Origin: Microcoleus sp. LAD1_D3
GTDB lineage: Bacteria > Cyanobacteriota > Cyanobacteriia > Cyanobacteriales > Microcoleaceae
NCBI GenBank assembly: GCA_036702135.1
Contig: JAUBSB010000012.1
Length of the DNA: 32,000 nt
Strand: one strand, 5' to 3'
The notes below the pieces were generated by a model, which did not search any database, was not told the origin of the DNA, and worked only from the letters and a program-made list of their open reading frames with translations. Shown piece after piece: positions 91 to 8,049 of this stretch (its first letter is position 1; each line of letters begins with the position of its first letter). A program made the position numbers and the translations under genes.

Positions 91-333
91 TTAAACTTTG
101 AGCGGCAATTGTGTTTGAATTGGAACGCTGTTTTCATCCAATACAGACACCGCATTTACGAACACAATTGTATGCGGGACTGCCGGCATTAAGCGGCGCA
201 GCGCGTTCAAGTAAGATTCGGCATCGGGGCGGCGGGCGAAACGGGCGACTGTTAACCGCTGACAGTTGGGGAGGTGGCGAATTAGATGCCAAGGTTGAAG
301 TCGATCGCGATATGTCGATTGTTTTGGTATCAT
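91..333 (-). CDS. small basic hypothetical protein (80 aa), no recognisable domain
   Basis: ORF-track ORF. The minus-strand translation looks protein-like (ARFARRPDAESYLNALRRLMP helix-like segment), whereas the overlapping plus-strand ORF 111-335 is an Arg/Gly-rich shadow. Divergent from the XRE pair. Coding status itself is uncertain. Confidence 0.4.
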   Translation of the reverse strand: MIPKQSTYRDRLQPWHLIRHLPNCQRLTVARFARRPDAESYLNALRRLMPAVPHTIVFVNAVSVLDENSVPIQTQLPLKV

Positions 334-433: not shown

Positions 434-447
434 GATACGTTCGTATC
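434..447. promoter_or_regulatory. 14-bp palindrome GATACGttCGTATC, candidate XRE operator
   Basis: Perfect 6-2-6 dyad ending 17 nt upstream of the ATG of the first XRE gene (464). A related copy lies at 956-969. Confidence 0.35.
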
Positions 448-463
448 GACTGTCAAGTGCAAG

Positions 464-676
464 ATGGGTCTAATTCGGTTGCGGGTTCGAGAACTAGCTG
501 AAGAGAAGGGTTGGACGTTGAAAGAAGTTTCTGAGCGATCGGGCATTCCTTACAGTACGGTTAGAAGCTATGCCCATTCTCCCAAGCTGGCAACGGTAGA
601 TTACACAGCTTTAAACAAAATGGCTCGCGTGTTTGATATTGCGATCGAAGATTTAGTTGAGATTTTGGAAGAGTAG
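464..676 (+). CDS. XRE/Cro-C1-type helix-turn-helix transcriptional regulator (70 aa)
   Basis: Typical short HTH_3-like pattern: LRVRELAEEKGWTLKEVSERSGIPYSTVRSYA (helix-turn-helix) followed by a short C-terminal helix. ATG start. Confidence 0.85.
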   Translation: MGLIRLRVRELAEEKGWTLKEVSERSGIPYSTVRSYAHSPKLATVDYTALNKMARVFDIAIEDLVEILEE

Positions 677-696
677 GCTGATTTTTTGCTGGGAAT

Positions 697-909
697 ATGG
701 GACGAATTAGGCTGCGAGTTCGAGAATTTGCTCAAGAGAAGGGTTGGAATCTGACAGAAGTCTCCAACAGAACAGGTATTCCATATACCACGATCATTAC
801 CTATGCCAATTCTCCAGGCATGGCTACCGTTGACTACACAGCTTTGGACAAGATGGCCAGTGCGTTCGATATTGCGATCGAAGATTTAGTCGAGATTTTG
901 GAACAGTAA
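697..909 (+). CDS. XRE-type HTH regulator, tandem paralog of 464-676 (52/70 residues identical by my alignment)
   Basis: Same length and architecture, 233-bp duplication register. The 3' ends are nearly identical at nucleotide level (gatattgcgatcgaagatttagt[t/c]gagattttggaa). Differences cluster in the predicted recognition helix (YSTVRSYAH vs YTTIITYAN). Confidence 0.85.
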   Translation: MGRIRLRVREFAQEKGWNLTEVSNRTGIPYTTIITYANSPGMATVDYTALDKMASAFDIAIEDLVEILEQ

Positions 910-955
910 ACTGATTGTGCGTAAACGACGGCTCTTGCGTTAGCACTTTTTACAC

Positions 956-969
956 GATACTTGCGTATA
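956..969. promoter_or_regulatory. degenerate copy of the 434-447 dyad (GATACttgCGTATa), candidate operator upstream of the STAND locus
   Basis: 11 of 14 positions identical to the 434-447 palindrome. Lies about 60 nt upstream of the probable ATG (1030) of the N-domain ORF. Confidence 0.25.
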
Positions 970-1029
970 TTGGAATTTTCCGGCTGTAGACTAGAGTCAG
1001 GAGTTGTTCAGTCTGCCGGAGTTATATCA

Positions 1030-1521
1030 ATGCCAATTAATCGTCTGTCTGACATAGAAGAAAACTTGGAATTGCTGCAAGAGCAATTAGTGGGCAAGCA
1101 GAAGGCTCTAAATTTAGCACCGCAAGAAGACAAGATCCGAATTAAACTGCAAATTCGAGAGCTACGCAAGGATATTCGGGAGCAGGAAGAGGATTATTGG
1201 CAGGTTTTCGCTCGGCAAACGAAAACAGAAGAAATTCCCGAACATGAGGCTGAGGTTATTGTTGCCGAGATTGTCGAAGAAGTTGGACAAATTGAAGTGC
1301 GGCGACAGTATCCCGATGAGGTAGTTCAGATTTTGCAGGAAATTCGGGACAAGCTAAACCAACCGGGACCGACAGCGGCCGCGAAACTTAAAGGCGTAAT
1401 CTCAAGCATTCCGCCGTTTGTAGGAATTTCCTACGAGGCAGAATTGGATACAGAGAATGTTTTACAGCAGCATTTCCCAACGTTTCGGAAATGGGCTAAG
1501 GTATTTGCAAAAAAGTCTTAG
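1030..1521 (+). CDS. coiled-coil / helical N-terminal-domain protein (163 aa), probably the N-terminal module of the downstream STAND NTPase
   Basis: The ORF-track ORF 961-1521 begins at TTG. The ATG at 1030 is preceded by GGAG 8 nt upstream. Heptad-like charged helix (LSDIEENLELLQEQLVGKQKALNL...IRIKLQIRELRKDIREQEEDYW), then an acidic helix and a short hydrophobic patch (KLKGVISSIPPFVGISYEAEL). Ends AAA AAG TCT TAG, overlapping the open NB-ARC frame. Confidence 0.7.
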   Translation: MPINRLSDIEENLELLQEQLVGKQKALNLAPQEDKIRIKLQIRELRKDIREQEEDYWQVFARQTKTEEIPEHEAEVIVAEIVEEVGQIEVRRQYPDEVVQILQEIRDKLNQPGPTAAAKLKGVISSIPPFVGISYEAELDTENVLQQHFPTFRKWAKVFAKKS

Positions 1522-1551
1522 ACCTGGAGCCCAAAACACCTAATCCAGGTT
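1509..1551 (+). promoter_or_regulatory. candidate programmed -1 ribosomal frameshift cassette (A_AAA_AAG heptamer, 6-nt spacer, 7-9 bp hairpin)
   Basis: The heptamer at 1509-1515 is phased X_XXY_YYZ in the upstream frame. The 0-frame stop is at 1519-1521. Hairpin arms are ACCTGGA 1522-1528 and TCCAGGT 1544-1550, with a 15-nt loop. The -1 frame is the NB-ARC frame, open from 1500. Confidence 0.4.
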
Positions 1552-1625
1552 TCACAAGTTTTTACCAACTATACGATATTCCCTCTGAACTCGGTTCAAA
1601 AAACTTTGTCGGACGGGATGAGGAA

Positions 1626-4046
1626 ATGCAGCAGTTGCACGGATTGTTGCAGGATGGGAGCCGCGTTGCCATTGCCGCTGCGTCGGGAATGGGCGGCATC
1701 GGCAAGACAGAATTGGCATGGCAGTATGCAAACTTTCACCGCGAACACAACACCTATCCAGCGGGGATTTGGTGGCTGTTTGTCCGGGACAACGATTTAG
1801 CGCCGCAGGTGTTGCAGAAAGCGCTGCGAATGGGAATTCAGCCGCCGGATACTCTCGACAATCTGGAGGAACGGTTGCAGTTTTGCTACGAAGAGTGGGC
1901 AAAACAAACCTCTGGCAATGCTCTGCTGGTATTGGATGATGTCAACGATTACCGCGCGGTGCAGCGGTTGCTGCCTAGAAATCCCCGCTTTAAGGTGTTG
2001 CTGACAGCGCGACAATTTGTGCCGTCGCCTGTGGGGTGTTTGCCGTTAAAAGTTTTGAAACCAGAGGCGGCGCTAAACTTGCTGCGGCTGACGGCTGGGG
2101 ATTTGCCGGGAAACGGGCTGGGACGGATTGATGCCCAGCTTGAAGATGCTCAAGCGCTTTGTCAGTGGTTGGATTATTTGCCTTTGGGCATTGAACTGGT
2201 GGGGCGCTATCTGCGGCGCAAGCGGGCGCTGTCCTTGGCAGAAATGCTGCAACGGTTGCAGAGTCAGCGATTGGAGGCACGGGCATTGCGGGAGGCGGAA
2301 GCTGGGATGACGGCTAGGCGCGGAGTGGCGGCAGCTTTTGAGTTGAGTTGGGCGGAGTTGAAATCTCCGGCGCGGACGCTGGGGTGTCTGCTGAGCGTGT
2401 TTGCTCTGGCTCCGATTCCTTGGGAGTTGGTAGCTGAGTGTTTGCCGGATTGGGATGAGGAGGAGTTGGAGGATTGTCGGGATTACGAACTGCTGGAACA
2501 AAGTTTGCTGTCCCTGGTGGAGGATGAAACCTCAGATTCGGGTCAATCTGGGCTGGTGCAGCCACGCTATCAACTTCATGGTTTGATTCGGGAGTTTTTT
2601 GCGGCAAAATTGCAGGGGCGCGCCGATACTGAGATTTTGCGGAGCAACTTTGCAGTGGTGCTGACAGCGGTGGCGAAGACGATTCCGCAGACTGTGACGC
2701 TGGAGGTGCAGGAACGGGTGAAGGAGGCGCTGCCCCATTTGGAGGTGGTGGCGGAGCAATGGTCGCATTTGCTGGAAGATAAGGATGCTGTGTGGTCTTT
2801 TACGAGCTTAGGGTGGGTTGCTCAGGGACAGAGTTCTTGGGTAGAGGCGGAGAAGTGGTTCAAAGCTTGTCTCCAGATGACACAGCAACGCTGCGGAGCC
2901 GACCATCCCGGTACGGCAACCAGTTTGAACAATCTGGCAGACCTATACCGTGCAATGGAACGCTACCCGGAGGCGGAACCGTTATTAGTGCGATCACTCG
3001 CCATCATAGAGCAACAGCTCGGAGCTGACCATCCCCAGACGGCTATGAGTTTGAACAATCTGGCAGCCCTGTACTATGCAATGGGTCGCTACGCGGAGGC
3101 GGAACCGTTATTAGTGCGATCGCTCTCTATTTACCAGCAGCAGCTAGGAGCCGACCATCTCAATACCGCTCCGACTTTGAACAATCTGGCAGAGCTATAC
3201 TGTGCAATGAGACGCTACTCGGAGGCGGAACCCTTCTTCGTGCGATCGCTCGCCATCATAGAGCAGCAGCTCGGAGCCGAGCATCCCCACACGGCTATGA
3301 GTTTGAATAATCTGGCAACTCTGTACTATGCAACGGGACGGTACGCGGAGGCGGAACCGTTATTAGTGCGATCGCTCGCCATCATAGAGCAGCAGCTAGG
3401 AACCGAGCATCCCCATACTGCTCAGAGTTTGAACAATCTGGCAGAGCTATACCGTGCAATGAGACGCTACTCGGAGGCGGAACCCTTGTTAGTGCGATCG
3501 CTCTCTATCCATGAGCAGCAGCTCGGAGCCGACCATCCCACTACGGCAAAGAGTTTGAACAATCTGGCAGGGCTATACGAGTCAATGGGACGCTACCCGG
3601 AAGCAGAACCCTTGTTAGTGCGATCGCTCTCTATCAACAAACTGCTGTTCGGAGCCGACCATCCTCATACGGCAACGAGTTTGAACAATCTGGCACATCT
3701 GTACCATGCAATGGGACGCTACCCCGAGGCGGAATTCTTGTATCTGCGATCGCTCACGATTAACGAGCAGCAGTTCGGAGCCGACCATCCTCATACGGCA
3801 GCTAGTTTGAACAATCTGGCATGGCTCTACTATGCAATGGGTCGCTACCCGGAGGCAGAACCGTTTTTTCTGGGAGCATTAGAAATCTTGTTTAACCAAT
3901 TGGGGAAGAATCATCCCGACACCCAAAGAGTTTGTAGGAATTTCATTAATTTTCTCCAGCAGGCCACATCAACTGGTCAAGACTCGCAACTTTCCCAGCA
4001 TCCAACAACGCAAGCAATGGTTAAGCGAGTTCGGGAGACGGAGTAG
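1626..4046 (+). CDS. STAND NTPase, NB-ARC domain + TPR (TPR_10/TPR_12, kinesin-light-chain-like) repeats
   Basis: Walker A GMGGIGKTELA, Walker B LLVLDDVND, LLTAR (RNBS-B-like), YLPLGIELVG (GLPL motif), then a helical/winged-helix region and eight 42-aa TPR units plus a cap. The frame is open from 1500 with no ATG/GTG/TTG before 1626, and the pre-P-loop segment NFVGRDEEMQQLH spans the first ATG. The true N-terminus is therefore probably upstream (see frameshift cassette). Confidence 0.9.
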   Translation: MQQLHGLLQDGSRVAIAAASGMGGIGKTELAWQYANFHREHNTYPAGIWWLFVRDNDLAPQVLQKALRMGIQPPDTLDNLEERLQFCYEEWAKQTSGNALLVLDDVNDYRAVQRLLPRNPRFKVLLTARQFVPSPVGCLPLKVLKPEAALNLLRLTAGDLPGNGLGRIDAQLEDAQALCQWLDYLPLGIELVGRYLRRKRALSLAEMLQRLQSQRLEARALREAEAGMTARRGVAAAFELSWAELKSPARTLGCLLSVFALAPIPWELVAECLPDWDEEELEDCRDYELLEQSLLSLVEDETSDSGQSGLVQPRYQLHGLIREFFAAKLQGRADTEILRSNFAVVLTAVAKTIPQTVTLEVQERVKEALPHLEVVAEQWSHLLEDKDAVWSFTSLGWVAQGQSSWVEAEKWFKACLQMTQQRCGADHPGTATSLNNLADLYRAMERYPEAEPLLVRSLAIIEQQLGADHPQTAMSLNNLAALYYAMGRYAEAEPLLVRSLSIYQQQLGADHLNTAPTLNNLAELYCAMRRYSEAEPFFVRSLAIIEQQLGAEHPHTAMSLNNLATLYYATGRYAEAEPLLVRSLAIIEQQLGTEHPHTAQSLNNLAELYRAMRRYSEAEPLLVRSLSIHEQQLGADHPTTAKSLNNLAGLYESMGRYPEAEPLLVRSLSINKLLFGADHPHTATSLNNLAHLYHAMGRYPEAEFLYLRSLTINEQQFGADHPHTAASLNNLAWLYYAMGRYPEAEPFFLGALEILFNQLGKNHPDTQRVCRNFINFLQQATSTGQDSQLSQHPTTQAMVKRVRETE
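2895..3902 (+). repeat. 8 tandem 126-bp (42-codon) coding repeats, plus a degenerate ninth unit to about 3960
   Basis: Unit starts fall at 2895, 3021, 3147, 3273, 3399, 3525, 3651 and 3777, in exact 126-bp register. Consensus is GADHPxTAxSLNNLAxLYxxMGRYxEAEPLLVRSLxIxEQQL. Most units carry a HIP1 site (gtGCGATCGCtc). Confidence 0.95.
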
Positions 4047-4208
4047 CTGTTACTGCTAGAACGATTGTTGCCAATTTCTCACTCAAATTTTTGGCGCATC
4101 GCTTCATCTACAAAACTCCAGTTTCCAGACAGGAAGACAATGATTTGCAATTCGTCGCCTGCGAAAATGTAAACTTCATCGCTTTGTGGATCACAGCGGA
4201 ATAGTGAG

Positions 4209-4454
4209 TTACACAACCTCTTCTAATTCAGGAATATGTTCAGCTTCATAGTTTTCGATTAAAACACCAATAACGTCCATCATCGAAGCCAGGGGATGAC
4301 TTTCATCCTCGCCCACTCGCTCGATAAGGCTATCTAGTAGTTCGACTAAACGCTCGTATTCCTGTTCGGTGTGAGGGACAAAAACCATTTTAGCAATGGA
4401 TGACCAAGCACCAATTGTTTGATCGAGATTAAGACTTTGCATCATTCTTTCCAC
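4209..4454 (-). CDS. HigA-like antitoxin, N-terminal (toxin-binding) domain only; no HTH domain
   Basis: Immediately downstream of, and overlapping, higB. An alternative ATG at 4445 gives the classic ATGA stop/start overlap. The sequence (TEQEYERLVELLDSLIE...DESHPLASMMDVIGVLIENYE) resembles the N-terminal half of E. coli HigA as I recall it. The ORF stops where the HTH would begin. Confidence 0.6.
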   Translation of the reverse strand: MERMMQSLNLDQTIGAWSSIAKMVFVPHTEQEYERLVELLDSLIERVGEDESHPLASMMDVIGVLIENYEAEHIPELEEVV

Positions 4455-4729
4455 CTTTCTTCATCGTATTCTGAGTGAGTTAATACAGCTCGAATGTAGA
4501 CTTTGTGCCGATTGTAATGAATAGCAGCAATGAGTCTAACTTTATTCCCTCCAATGTTGAAAACAGTCAATTTCCCGACTCGATCCGCCGATGGAAATAT
4601 TTCGCGGAGTTCAACGAATGTCGCAAATTCATTTTGTTTGACGAGTTTGTACCACTGAACCAAGGCATTTGTTGTATCTGGATGAAGTTTAGCAAACTCA
4701 TTCAGCCGTTTGCGGGTGATCACGTGCAT
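4442..4729 (-). CDS. higB: type II toxin HigB (RelE-superfamily mRNA interferase)
   Basis: MHVITRKRLNEFAKLHPD...FPSADRVGKLTVFNIGGNKVRLIAAIHYNRHKVYIRAVLTHSEYD matches the E. coli HigB/YgjN pattern (MHLITQKAL...VFNVGGNELRVVAMV...YIREVMTHKEYD). Toxin-first gene order is typical of hig loci. Confidence 0.85.
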   Translation of the reverse strand: MHVITRKRLNEFAKLHPDTTNALVQWYKLVKQNEFATFVELREIFPSADRVGKLTVFNIGGNKVRLIAAIHYNRHKVYIRAVLTHSEYDEERWKE

Positions 4730-6431: not shown

Positions 6432-6606
6432 TTTTTTTAAGAATTGTTAACGTTCTTTTGTTATTATGAGCCGATCGACTGCCACAATTTACTCTTGAAC
6501 CCCTCAAAGAATATCTATTTAACGAGCCGCGAAGACGCGAAGGGCGCCAAGAAAGAGAAAGAAGAAGATAGGTAATGCCTTGTTCGGTTCAGGAGTAGGC
6601 TGCATA

Positions 6607-8049
6607 ATGGGTTACATGAAATGTCCAAGATGCGAATCAGACGAAGTTCGTAAAAACGGCCGTCCCAACGGGCACCAGCGGTATCTTTGCAAAGCTTGCC
6701 GCAAACATTTTTTTGAGCGGTTGAGTCCGCAGTCTTTCAGTCGCCAATGCACCGAAACAGAGTTAAGCGAAGCTATCCCGCAAGGAATCGAGTCTGCAAC
6801 AACCACAGAGTCCGGCGGGATTTCGATTTTGCTGTTAGATGCCGAAAATCTGAAACTTAAGGTTAATACAGAACAATTCTTAGCGGGTTTGTGCGACTAT
6901 CCCCTGCAAGTTAAAATTGCTTTTGCTAACTGGAAAAACCCAAGTATCGGCAAGTTGGATGCTGAACTTTATGATCGCGGTTACGAACTGATTCACGTTC
7001 CGGGCGGTGCTAATAGTGCGGATGGTAAAATGATTGCTTTTGGCGCTGCTATTTTATATCGATATCGGGATGTAAAACAAGTTTTTGTCTGTTCTTCGGA
7101 TGGTTTGTTAAATCATCTTTGCAATCAGTTGCAAAATCAGGGATTGACTGTCTTTCGGGTGCGTCGGCAAAATTCTGTTTTGTCTGTAGAAAACTGTCAG
7201 AATGGTGAGAGCAAGCACTATTCTTGCGAAAGAGAAGAGGAAATCCCTAGTTTTGAAGAATTGGCTAATCAAGTTACAGAGTTGTTGAAGGCTGAACACA
7301 AATCTATTGATGAGCGAATCGCTCGTTTTTCTACTGTGGCTGAGCTTTTTCAAGAGCGCCACACTATTGTTTTCCCTTCTACAACTTCCCCTGCTGCACT
7401 GTCGGATTCAGCAGAAGACAAAATTTCTTCTGGGACTAAAGAGTGTGTAACTCCTCTTGTCGTGGATCTAGATATTGAATCCCAAAAAGTTCCCGAAACC
7501 AAGTCAGTCAATTCAATTGGGATTAATTCGCTGGATGATTTAGAAAAGATACTTGTAGCAATGATTGCGAAAGCGATAGTTGAGTTAAAACAAAATGCTA
7601 TTTTCGTCACAAGAATCAAGAAACAATTTTATACGAAATATCAGTGTCATGCCGATTTACTTGTGAAAAAGTTTTTGCCTGATTCTAGTCTAATTAATTA
7701 TTTTAAATCGCGTCCGTCTGTTTTCAAAATGGAATTGCTCGGTAACGAACATCAAGTGGCGATCGCTCCCAAAGCAGCAGCAGCTTCAAAAACAGATCCC
7801 TCAGCCGCCCTGGAAGCATCTATAGAAAATATTGTACTGGCATTAACTGCTAAATCTCCAGGCAATTACATTGGCATTAACCAGGTAGCCACCGAATTTC
7901 ACAAGCAATACGGTCAACCGATTACTAAAAAGCTGCAATCGCTGCATTTGGGTAGCAATTTTTACGATTTTTTGCAGTCATGCCAAAAATTTAAAGTTCA
8001 GAAAAAGGGTAAGGAGCATCAAGTGGCGATCGCCAAAGTTACGGATTAA
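6607..8049 (+). CDS. Zn-ribbon + NYN (LabA-like, PIN-fold RNase) + two OST-HTH/LOTUS domains
   Basis: CPRC...x17...CKAC zinc ribbon of IS1 InsA-N type. NYN motifs ILLLDAENL, GGANSADGKMI, VFVCSSDGLLNHL...GLTVF. Two C-terminal modules each end in G.EHQVAIA. Start is ambiguous (TTG 6580, ATG 6607 or 6616). Confidence 0.8.
   Translation: MGYMKCPRCESDEVRKNGRPNGHQRYLCKACRKHFFERLSPQSFSRQCTETELSEAIPQGIESATTTESGGISILLLDAENLKLKVNTEQFLAGLCDYPLQVKIAFANWKNPSIGKLDAELYDRGYELIHVPGGANSADGKMIAFGAAILYRYRDVKQVFVCSSDGLLNHLCNQLQNQGLTVFRVRRQNSVLSVENCQNGESKHYSCEREEEIPSFEELANQVTELLKAEHKSIDERIARFSTVAELFQERHTIVFPSTTSPAALSDSAEDKISSGTKECVTPLVVDLDIESQKVPETKSVNSIGINSLDDLEKILVAMIAKAIVELKQNAIFVTRIKKQFYTKYQCHADLLVKKFLPDSSLINYFKSRPSVFKMELLGNEHQVAIAPKAAAASKTDPSAALEASIENIVLALTAKSPGNYIGINQVATEFHKQYGQPITKKLQSLHLGSNFYDFLQSCQKFKVQKKGKEHQVAIAKVTD

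Follow-up and report, generated by a model that had tools for sequence, protein, structure and literature searches.

A 32,000-nucleotide (nt) stretch of the genome of Microcoleus sp. LAD1_D3 (GenBank assembly GCA_036702135.1, contig JAUBSB010000012.1), hereafter called the window, carries a small gene for a helical protein directly followed by a gene for an NB-ARC NTPase with tetratricopeptide repeats (TPRs). Comparison with related loci indicates that positions 1030 to 4046 are probably one recoded gene, not two, encoding a STAND (signal transduction ATPase with numerous domains) receptor that resembles nucleotide-binding leucine-rich-repeat (NLR) proteins. Ribosomes translating the open reading frame (ORF) of the N-terminal helical domain, here named the head, would arrive at the heptamer A_AAA_AAG (1509-1515), with a near-adjacent TAG and a hairpin beyond it. 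The majority would terminate at the TAG and release a free helical head of 163 amino acids (aa). Some would slip back one base into the NB-ARC-TPR frame and complete a head-NTPase-TPR protein of 1005 aa.

A preliminary description of this DNA, made from its letters alone, had listed the helical ORF and the NTPase as neighbors in an NLR-like locus. Every ORF that it listed was recovered at the same coordinates in a six-frame ORF list. However, it had overlooked that the 163-aa ORF and the NTPase ORF occupy different frames and that the open NTPase frame already carries coding sequence ahead of its ATG. The N-module would be neither a separate neighbor protein nor a plain in-frame domain: it is linked to the NTPase by a conserved, putative -1 frameshift site. 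The features of the predicted gene, all on the plus strand, are as follows.

1030-1521, plus strand: head ORF in the zero frame, encoding the 163-aa all-alpha free head domain of an unnamed family
1509-1515, plus strand: proposed -1 frameshift site, the slippery heptamer A_AAA_AAG, which is in phase with the 163-aa ORF
1519-1521, plus strand: zero-frame stop codon TAG, one codon past the heptamer
1520-1552, plus strand: predicted 9-bp hairpin, a candidate 3' stimulator that begins 5 nt past the heptamer
1515-1625, plus strand: start-less linker in the -1 frame, VLDLEPKTPNPGFTSFYQLYDIPSELGSKNFVGRDEE, containing the pre-P-loop FVGR motif (1605-1616)
1515-4046, plus strand: portion of the trans-frame product read in the -1 frame, 843 aa; the fusion was built in silico
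1626-4046, plus strand: NB-ARC/TPR ORF as listed from its ATG, with NB-ARC and TPR_12 matches
1686-1709, plus strand: Walker A motif GMGGIGKT (fusion residue 220)
1923-1940, plus strand: Walker B motif LLVLDD (fusion residue 299)
2178-2189, plus strand: GLPL-type motif LPLG (fusion residue 384)
2574-2591, plus strand: MHD-like motif LHGLIR (fusion residue 516)
2894-3862, plus strand: regular TPR array of 42-aa (126-nt) units of the kinesin light chain (KLC) type, the presumed sensor

The head ORF is preceded by GGAG eight nucleotides 5' of its ATG, and its 3' end reads GCA_AAA_AAG_TCT_TAG. The NTPase frame is open back to position 1500 and holds no ATG, GTG or TTG until 1626, which rules out a separate in-frame start upstream of that position. 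The stretch before the ATG translates as ...KKVLDLEPKTPNPGFTSFYQLYDIPSELGSKNFVGRDEE-MQQLHGLL..., and the pre-P-loop motif FVGRDEE is encoded there. FVGR-x-E-L ahead of the P-loop is the usual lead-in of STAND NTPases. A -1 slip at 1509-1515 would join head residues 1-162 to 843 further residues, giving the 1005-aa head-NB-ARC-TPR protein. In Escherichia coli, A_AAA_AAG is the most shift-prone heptamer and the natural site in dnaX (PMC5009743; PMC3711429).

Conservation of the putative frameshift site

About 50 related loci (26 to 94% identity) have a heptamer in phase with the head ORF, 0 to 6 nt before its stop codon, with a -1 ORF running on; the heptamer is A_AAA_AAG, A_AAA_AAA or G_GGA_AAA. 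Searching with the head and the linker together yielded more than 120 protein clusters, at 71 to 94% identity. Nearly all of these proteins are exactly 163 aa long, the longer ones owing their extra length to upstream start calls, and all of them end in KK[S/P/L]. In the Microcoleus genomes, 11 of 11 loci share the same heptamer, the same TAG and the -1 ORF, which is open from 9 nt before the heptamer and extends over 762 to 929 codons.

The pattern extends beyond the genus. In a set of 48 loci, taken from a metagenome scan plus locus L012 and with head identities of 35 to 94%, A_AAA_AAG or A_AAA_AAA stands in phase 0 to 6 nt before the stop in 46, followed by a continuing -1 ORF, and the +1 frame is always short. 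The two exceptions (L020 and L057) have a disrupted head ORF. Four further loci (L045, L053, L054 and L058) keep the heptamer with a -1 ORF of just 44 codons. All six are probably decaying copies. The most distant member, at 26% identity (L060/L061), retains TCA_AAA_AAG_TAA and a -1 ORF, and in Stenomitos frigidus ULC029 the order is A_AAA_AAG, TAA, a 12-bp hairpin and then NB-ARC-TPR. Both ORFs are under purifying selection down to 26% identity.

The codons around the site carry a signal of their own. The codon preceding the two lysines is GCA, CTA, CCA, GTA, TCA or AAA, encoding A, L, P, V, S or K, and its wobble base is A in all 30 distinct C-terminal tails. Since the wobble A is kept across six preceding amino acids, protein constraint cannot explain the conservation of the heptamer. 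Members of two lineages that end in -GK carry G_GGA_AAA at the same place, and here too a stop, a hairpin and a -1 ORF come next (L066, ~820-870, where the -1 ORF encodes an ATPase; L067, ~775-830, where it encodes a transmembrane, Pro/Ser-rich protein). Among 83 family representatives whose ORF ends with the head, KK lies within the last eight residues in 55 and is exactly terminal in 34. A second head branch (L063, L064 and L065) ends in ...NRPK, NHPR or ENPQ followed by TAG GCN CRT CG. The slippery heptamer is absent from this non-KK branch, and in L065 the gene after the head has its own ATG. Across the KK and GK members, the comparison shows the predicted recoding site to be conserved.

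The linker between the zero-frame stop and the ATG was analyzed in 19 Microcoleus-type loci. Over these 35 codons, the ratio of nonsynonymous to synonymous polymorphism (pN/pS) is 0.198 when they are read in the -1 frame, compared with 4.5 for the head frame and 0.85 for the third. Across the final 18 codons, the protein is invariant with many synonymous changes. This substitution pattern shows the start-less linker to be coding. In five loci (L036 and L047-L050), no ATG, GTG or TTG occurs in the -1 ORF until after the Walker A motif, so that their P-loop would be made only by reading in from the head ORF.

Downstream of the heptamer, the window has a predicted hairpin at 1520-1552 with arms AGACCTGGA and TCCAGGTTT, a 9-bp stem and a 15-nt loop. 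Its minimum free energy is -11.6 kcal/mol (z -2.4 against dinucleotide shuffles), and it is conserved in Microcoleus-type loci. Most sampled lineages have a hairpin of unrelated, lineage-specific sequence that starts 3 to 7 nt past the heptamer, with arms such as ACCTGGA/TCCAGGT, CTGGCCC/GGGCCAG, CGCTCCC/GGGAGCG and GGTCTCCCGATC/GATCGGGAGACC; that of L034 forms a 20-bp stem. Folding energies fall in the lowest 5% of dinucleotide shuffles in 11 of 26 representative loci.

Rival readings of the split

Several observations weigh against a single recoded gene. The window contains 14 matches to the heptamer where 19 are expected; the motif is not enriched, and its rarity was dropped as evidence, so that the case rests on the comparison between loci. 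No convincing 3' hairpin was found in L024, L035, L038, L044, L045, L047, L052 or L053, and two Microcoleus-type loci have a mismatch in the stem. The predicted 3' hairpin is a common feature of the family, not a universal one. No compensatory stem changes occur within Microcoleus, where conservation of the stem is confounded with that of the coding sequence. AAGG, AAAGG or GGAG often lies 6 to 14 nt upstream of the site, and such a Shine-Dalgarno-like stimulator is inseparable from the conserved Lys/Gly codons. Runs of seven to nine A's, which may shift by transcriptional slippage instead, are found in L024, L035, L038 and L068, and L044, L046, L056 and L059 have a start codon upstream of the FxGR motif that permits independent initiation. 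As to function, the comparison with Avs antiviral proteins made in the preliminary description was run with PADLOC-DB v2; no Avs hidden Markov model (HMM) matched, and the one hit was the generic TPR model PDLC01169. We infer an anti-phage or cell-death function, homotypic contacts between heads and a role for the free head by analogy with other systems.

The long A runs bear on whether the slipping enzyme is the ribosome at all. If RNA polymerase added one A to some transcripts, the fusion frame would by simple reasoning be restored from the run of six, with no part played by the ribosome, and such slippage on nine A's is established for Thermus dnaX (PMC3711429). In L068, from Anabaena sp. 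UHCC 0451, a run of nine A's (~4470-4510) stands ahead of an nSTAND NTPase, and there transcriptional slippage is as plausible as ribosomal. As an account of the family, it is improbable. Most loci have six A's and then a G. Tandem tRNA-Lys slippage works best on this arrangement, and the run is short for the polymerase to slip on it efficiently (PMC5009743). The G_GGA_AAA variants do without a long homopolymer, and hairpins 3 to 7 nt downstream with an adjacent stop codon are features of ribosomal stimulators.

Public records annotate two genes, and an ATG is indeed present at 1626. A small helical protein followed by an independent NTPase, with the continuity of the frame incidental or reflecting translational coupling, would also match the Bell/BASS systems discussed below, in which small helical genes lie directly upstream of NLR genes, and the few lineages with a start codon ahead of the FxGR motif. 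We nevertheless consider two genes very unlikely. Purifying selection on the 35 codons before the ATG, which encode FVGR, is confined to the NTPase frame (pN/pS 0.20), and in five loci Walker A precedes any possible start. The wobble A and the heptamer are kept where the protein does not demand them, the G_GGA_AAA replacement is still a canonical slippery pattern, and natural in-frame fusions of the head to NTPases exist.

Scarcely credible is a broken gene, a phase-variable switch at the DNA level or a homopolymer sequencing error: no error of sequencing or replication is commoner than a difference of one base in a run of A's, and there are the disrupted copies (L020 and L057) and those with short -1 ORFs (L045, L053, L054 and L058), yet the same "off" state recurs in more than 120 clusters and some 60 independent contigs from different projects and platforms, which rules out sequencing error or a recent pseudogene; an A7 "on" allele is never seen among close relatives; purifying selection still acts on the two ORFs in relatives as distant as 26% identity; and a pseudogene would not hold an 840-aa ORF open in every strain.

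The head domain and the receptor

An exhaustive search gathered 214 representatives of the head family after clustering at 50% identity. The AlphaFold2 model of the head, built from a 70-sequence alignment, is all-alpha with eight helices (predicted local distance difference test 89, predicted template-modeling score 0.78), and the family shares the signature ...AAKLKGVISSIPPF(V/I)G(I/L)SYEAELDTE...FPTF... The preliminary description had placed this domain in no named family, and this is borne out: the head has no Pfam or NCBIfam match and no significant PADLOC match. Foldseek identified no structural analogue in the PDB (best E 0.54, template-modeling score below 0.4) or in BFVD, and a profile search of PDB sequences likewise returned nothing. 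Against the Pfam effector-associated domain (EAD) families EAD1-EAD11, the window head has no match even at E<=1, and EAD9 is weakly matched by 6 of 70 head relatives (best E 0.008). The contig index contains no exact copy of the 163-aa protein, and the window contains no second head.

The same description had noted a short hydrophobic patch in this domain and had proposed the domain itself as the output of the system. The patch falls within the conserved head signature, and with a Kyte-Doolittle maximum of 1.04 over 19 residues no transmembrane segment is predicted. Nothing in the analysis supported the head as the killing output; its distribution is that of an adaptor, and a membrane segment is not predicted.

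That distribution is broad. The head is ~160 aa long and always lies at a protein terminus or immediately before a frameshift. Across lineages, the predicted -1 products are NB-ARC plus TPR, NACHT, nSTAND3/4, NPHP3_N/AAA_16, VMAP-C, GUN4, and transmembrane plus TPR modules. The head is also C-terminal to TRADD-N, TIR/SEFIR, an SNF2 helicase, LRR-Roc-COR and a NACHT-like NTPase. It occurs on core NTPases and on effector or signaling proteins, both kinds being found within the genus Microcoleus, and is, by its predicted architectures, distributed as an effector-associated adaptor domain. In-frame fusions to nSTAND1 (P0186) and to AAA_16 plus TPR (P0243) show that the fused head-NTPase architecture exists in nature among predicted proteins. 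The frameshift cassette appears to belong to the head domain, not to the NTPase, and to be placed before many conflict cores in filamentous cyanobacteria.

In Microcoleus sp. A006_D1 (L062, 4001-5221), a TRADD-N-head protein with a 62% identical head is encoded beside a CyanoTRADDas_TM gene. This gene keeps the heptamer, the TAG and the 5' arm of the hairpin (GCAAAAAAGTCCTAGACCTGGAG) and then diverges inside the hairpin, and its -1 frame stops after 8 codons. The retention of GCAAAAAAGTCCTAGACCTGGAG and the break inside the hairpin indicate that TRADD-N-head was derived from a head-NTPase locus. It is a likely partner of the head domain on the effector side.

In the window, the other half of the predicted receptor is a STAND NTPase of the NB-ARC (AP-ATPase) clade. 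Residues 4-219 of ORF 1626-4046 match NB-ARC (PF00931; E 9.5e-14; score 51.7 bits, cutoff 23.5), and the Walker A, Walker B, GLPL-type and MHD-like motifs occur in order. The ORF also contains nine TPR_12 units. Tandem Repeats Finder describes the TPR array as 7.7 copies of a 126-nt period with 81% matches, and the closest solved structures are the TPRs of KLC. In orthologues, the trans-frame part measures 762, ~805, ~846 or 929 aa, in steps of ~42 aa, and the number of TPRs varies. These steps are consistent with repeat shuffling in the sensor. Between strains, identity is 69 to 93% for the NTPase, 76 to 90% for the head and 98 to 99.6% for the UbiD protein encoded nearby. An NTPase that diverges far faster than UbiD and varies in TPR number fits a gene under conflict.

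A mechanism can be proposed from the architectures of the head together with what is established for STAND/NLR proteins and effector-associated domains. A trigger would be sensed or bound by the TPR array, and the NB-ARC domain would oligomerize on nucleotide exchange. Once clustered, the heads would make like-with-like contacts with free heads and with effectors that carry a head, such as TRADD-N-head. Frameshift efficiency would fix the ratio of free to receptor-bound heads, and the free head would be either a recruited species or a capping inhibitor. It is conceivable, although we hold it with some doubt, that the head, heptamer, stop and hairpin form a portable cassette that sets a fixed excess of free head from one mRNA, so that an activated receptor nucleates free heads and head-tagged effectors, an ASC/CARD-like amplification in one gene. 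The free head could instead be an inhibitor that caps the receptor and sets its threshold. Because the site is decoded wholly by tRNA-Lys, frameshift efficiency could follow infection-induced changes in this tRNA, and receptor dosage may respond to such changes or to changes in translation.

NB-ARC-TPR proteins in filamentous cyanobacteria, adaptor domains on them and -1 frameshifting at A_AAA_AAG are already known, and bacterial NLR-like receptors are intensely studied as ancestors or analogues of animal and plant immune receptors. The closest parallels for the site are the programmed -1 frameshifts of E. coli dnaX (tau/gamma) and of OrfA/OrfAB in the IS3 family. The window gene has the same in-phase A_AAA_AAG, with a candidate hairpin a few nucleotides downstream, and would likewise give two products with a common N-terminus. 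Its zero frame ends just past the site and its -1 frame would give the long fusion, an arrangement also found in IS3 elements. Unlike in dnaX and IS3, the host gene is an NLR-like STAND receptor and not a replication or transposition gene, and the cassette, predicted here from sequence, rides on a mobile protein domain before at least seven unrelated downstream modules.

For the head, the nearest precedent is the EAD principle, in which a small helical terminal domain occurs on a core NTPase and on effectors and is proposed to couple them like with like (Kaur, Burroughs, Iyer, Aravind 2020, PMC7159879; Kaur et al. 2021, PMC8195603). The head resembles EADs as a small, non-catalytic, all-alpha terminal domain found in filamentous cyanobacteria, N-terminal on STAND and VMAP-type cores and C-terminal on TRADD-N, TIR and Roc-COR. 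It differs in that the window head has no significant match to a Pfam EAD model and in being linked to its core by a predicted frameshift; the word "frameshift" occurs 0 times in PMC7159879 and in PMC8195603.

The Bell/BASS systems of multicellular cyanobacteria also have a small helical-domain gene collinear with and immediately upstream of an NB-ARC-TPR gene, and the ORFs often overlap (Dyrka et al. 2020, bioRxiv 10.1101/2020.01.06.895854). Their proteins are separate and communicate via a short amyloid motif that the small protein has at its C-terminus and the NLR at its N-terminus (bioRxiv 10.1101/2020.01.06.895854). The window gene has the same layout, with a small helical-domain gene directly 5' of and collinear with an NB-ARC-TPR gene. 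Unlike in Bell/BASS, its two ORFs would be read into one chain. A repeated amyloid motif of the BASS type was not found: the -1 linker (VLDLEPKTPNPGF...) is unlike the head tail by inspection, the head C-terminus is predicted to be helical, and there is no Pfam match.

With Avs and other bacterial NLR-related proteins, the predicted receptor shares an N-terminal module, a STAND NTPase, a C-terminal TPR-like sensor and a fast-evolving locus (PMC13581612). It differs from Avs in that its N-module is not a recognized enzyme effector and that no PADLOC Avs HMM matches it. Its NTPase is of the NB-ARC/AP-ATPase family with KLC-type TPRs, typical of cyanobacteria.

In the literature on NTP-dependent conflict systems, BASS/Bell, Avs (a 2026 survey), GeneTack and recoding (a 2016 review), of which our coverage is incomplete, we found no earlier report of a frameshifted bacterial NLR-like immune gene, and none in which a protein domain takes its frameshift cassette along to many different downstream modules. 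If the single recoded gene is correct, a common family in filamentous cyanobacteria is systematically misannotated as a "hypothetical protein" plus an N-terminally truncated NTPase, and surveys of predicted proteins overlook this N-terminal module on receptors. It would add a cellular use of programmed frameshifting to those in replication, mobile elements, phage tail chaperones and carboxysome CsoS2, and would be an example of a frameshift site moving together with a protein domain. The seven-nucleotide site would also make control of a receptor by the ratio of free to tethered adaptor testable.

Neighboring genes

The remaining features of the locus flank the predicted receptor gene on both sides.

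464-676, plus strand: XRE1, a 70-aa Cro/C1-type helix-turn-helix (HTH) protein, first array unit (HTH_26, E 1.6e-8; HTH_3 also)
697-909, plus strand: XRE2, a 70-aa Cro/C1-type HTH protein, second array unit (HTH_26, E 9.5e-8; HTH_3 also)
4209-4454, minus strand: 80-aa HigB partner ORF without a detected HTH
4442-4729, minus strand: HigB-family toxin gene (HigB_toxin, PF09907, E 2.6e-30)

Synteny in Microcoleus runs from an 80-aa ORF on the minus strand through one to five XRE genes, the head and the NTPase to an optional HigB cassette, UbiD on the minus strand and a protein with an InsA-type zinc ribbon and an NYN domain. No tRNA genes were found in the window, and scans for promoters and terminators gave nothing informative.

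XRE1 and XRE2 form a 233-nt direct repeat of 77% identical DNA. The array was compared between the window (461-916) and L001, L006, L008, L010, L011, L014, L015 and L018, where it has one to five copies of three sequence types in varying order. This variation looks like expansion and contraction driven by recombination. The array is specific to the Microcoleus locus, where it is present wherever the upstream flank was recovered, and XRE control of the Microcoleus gene is plausible. An XRE gene was not found upstream in 18 other loci or beside the cassette in other lineages, which rules it out as a family-wide partner. In every syntenic locus, an 80-aa ORF (91-333, minus strand, in the window) with no family match is divergent from the XRE array, and the same divergent pair recurs twice near the TRADD-N-head gene of L062 (2862-3101 and 6130-6369). 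The recurrence suggests a repeated two-gene module.

On the other side of the UbiD gene, positions 6580-8049 of the window encode the 489-aa protein with an InsA-type zinc ribbon and an NYN nuclease domain, which is unusually divergent between strains at 56 to 89% identity, compared with 98 to 99.6% for UbiD.

The NLR-like locus proposed in the preliminary description holds for the NB-ARC STAND core, the TPR array and the unnamed helical N-module; the HigB/short-HigA pair that it included is not part of the module. The HigB toxin, RelE-like and of type II, is real, as is the conserved 80-aa ORF beside it, but this partner is no HTH antitoxin by the searches made, with no HTH and no Pfam or NCBIfam match; it weakly matches the N-terminus of PD-Lambda-2_B and nothing else. 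Besides HigB and the 80-aa ORF, the cassette (4079-4729, minus strand) contains a DUF6888 fragment. The toxin and partner genes occur together in the window, L003, L008 and L016 and partially in L002, and most syntenic loci are without them, which rules out the pair as part of the module. The presence of the cassette in a minority of syntenic loci points to an independent insertion between the NLR gene and UbiD.

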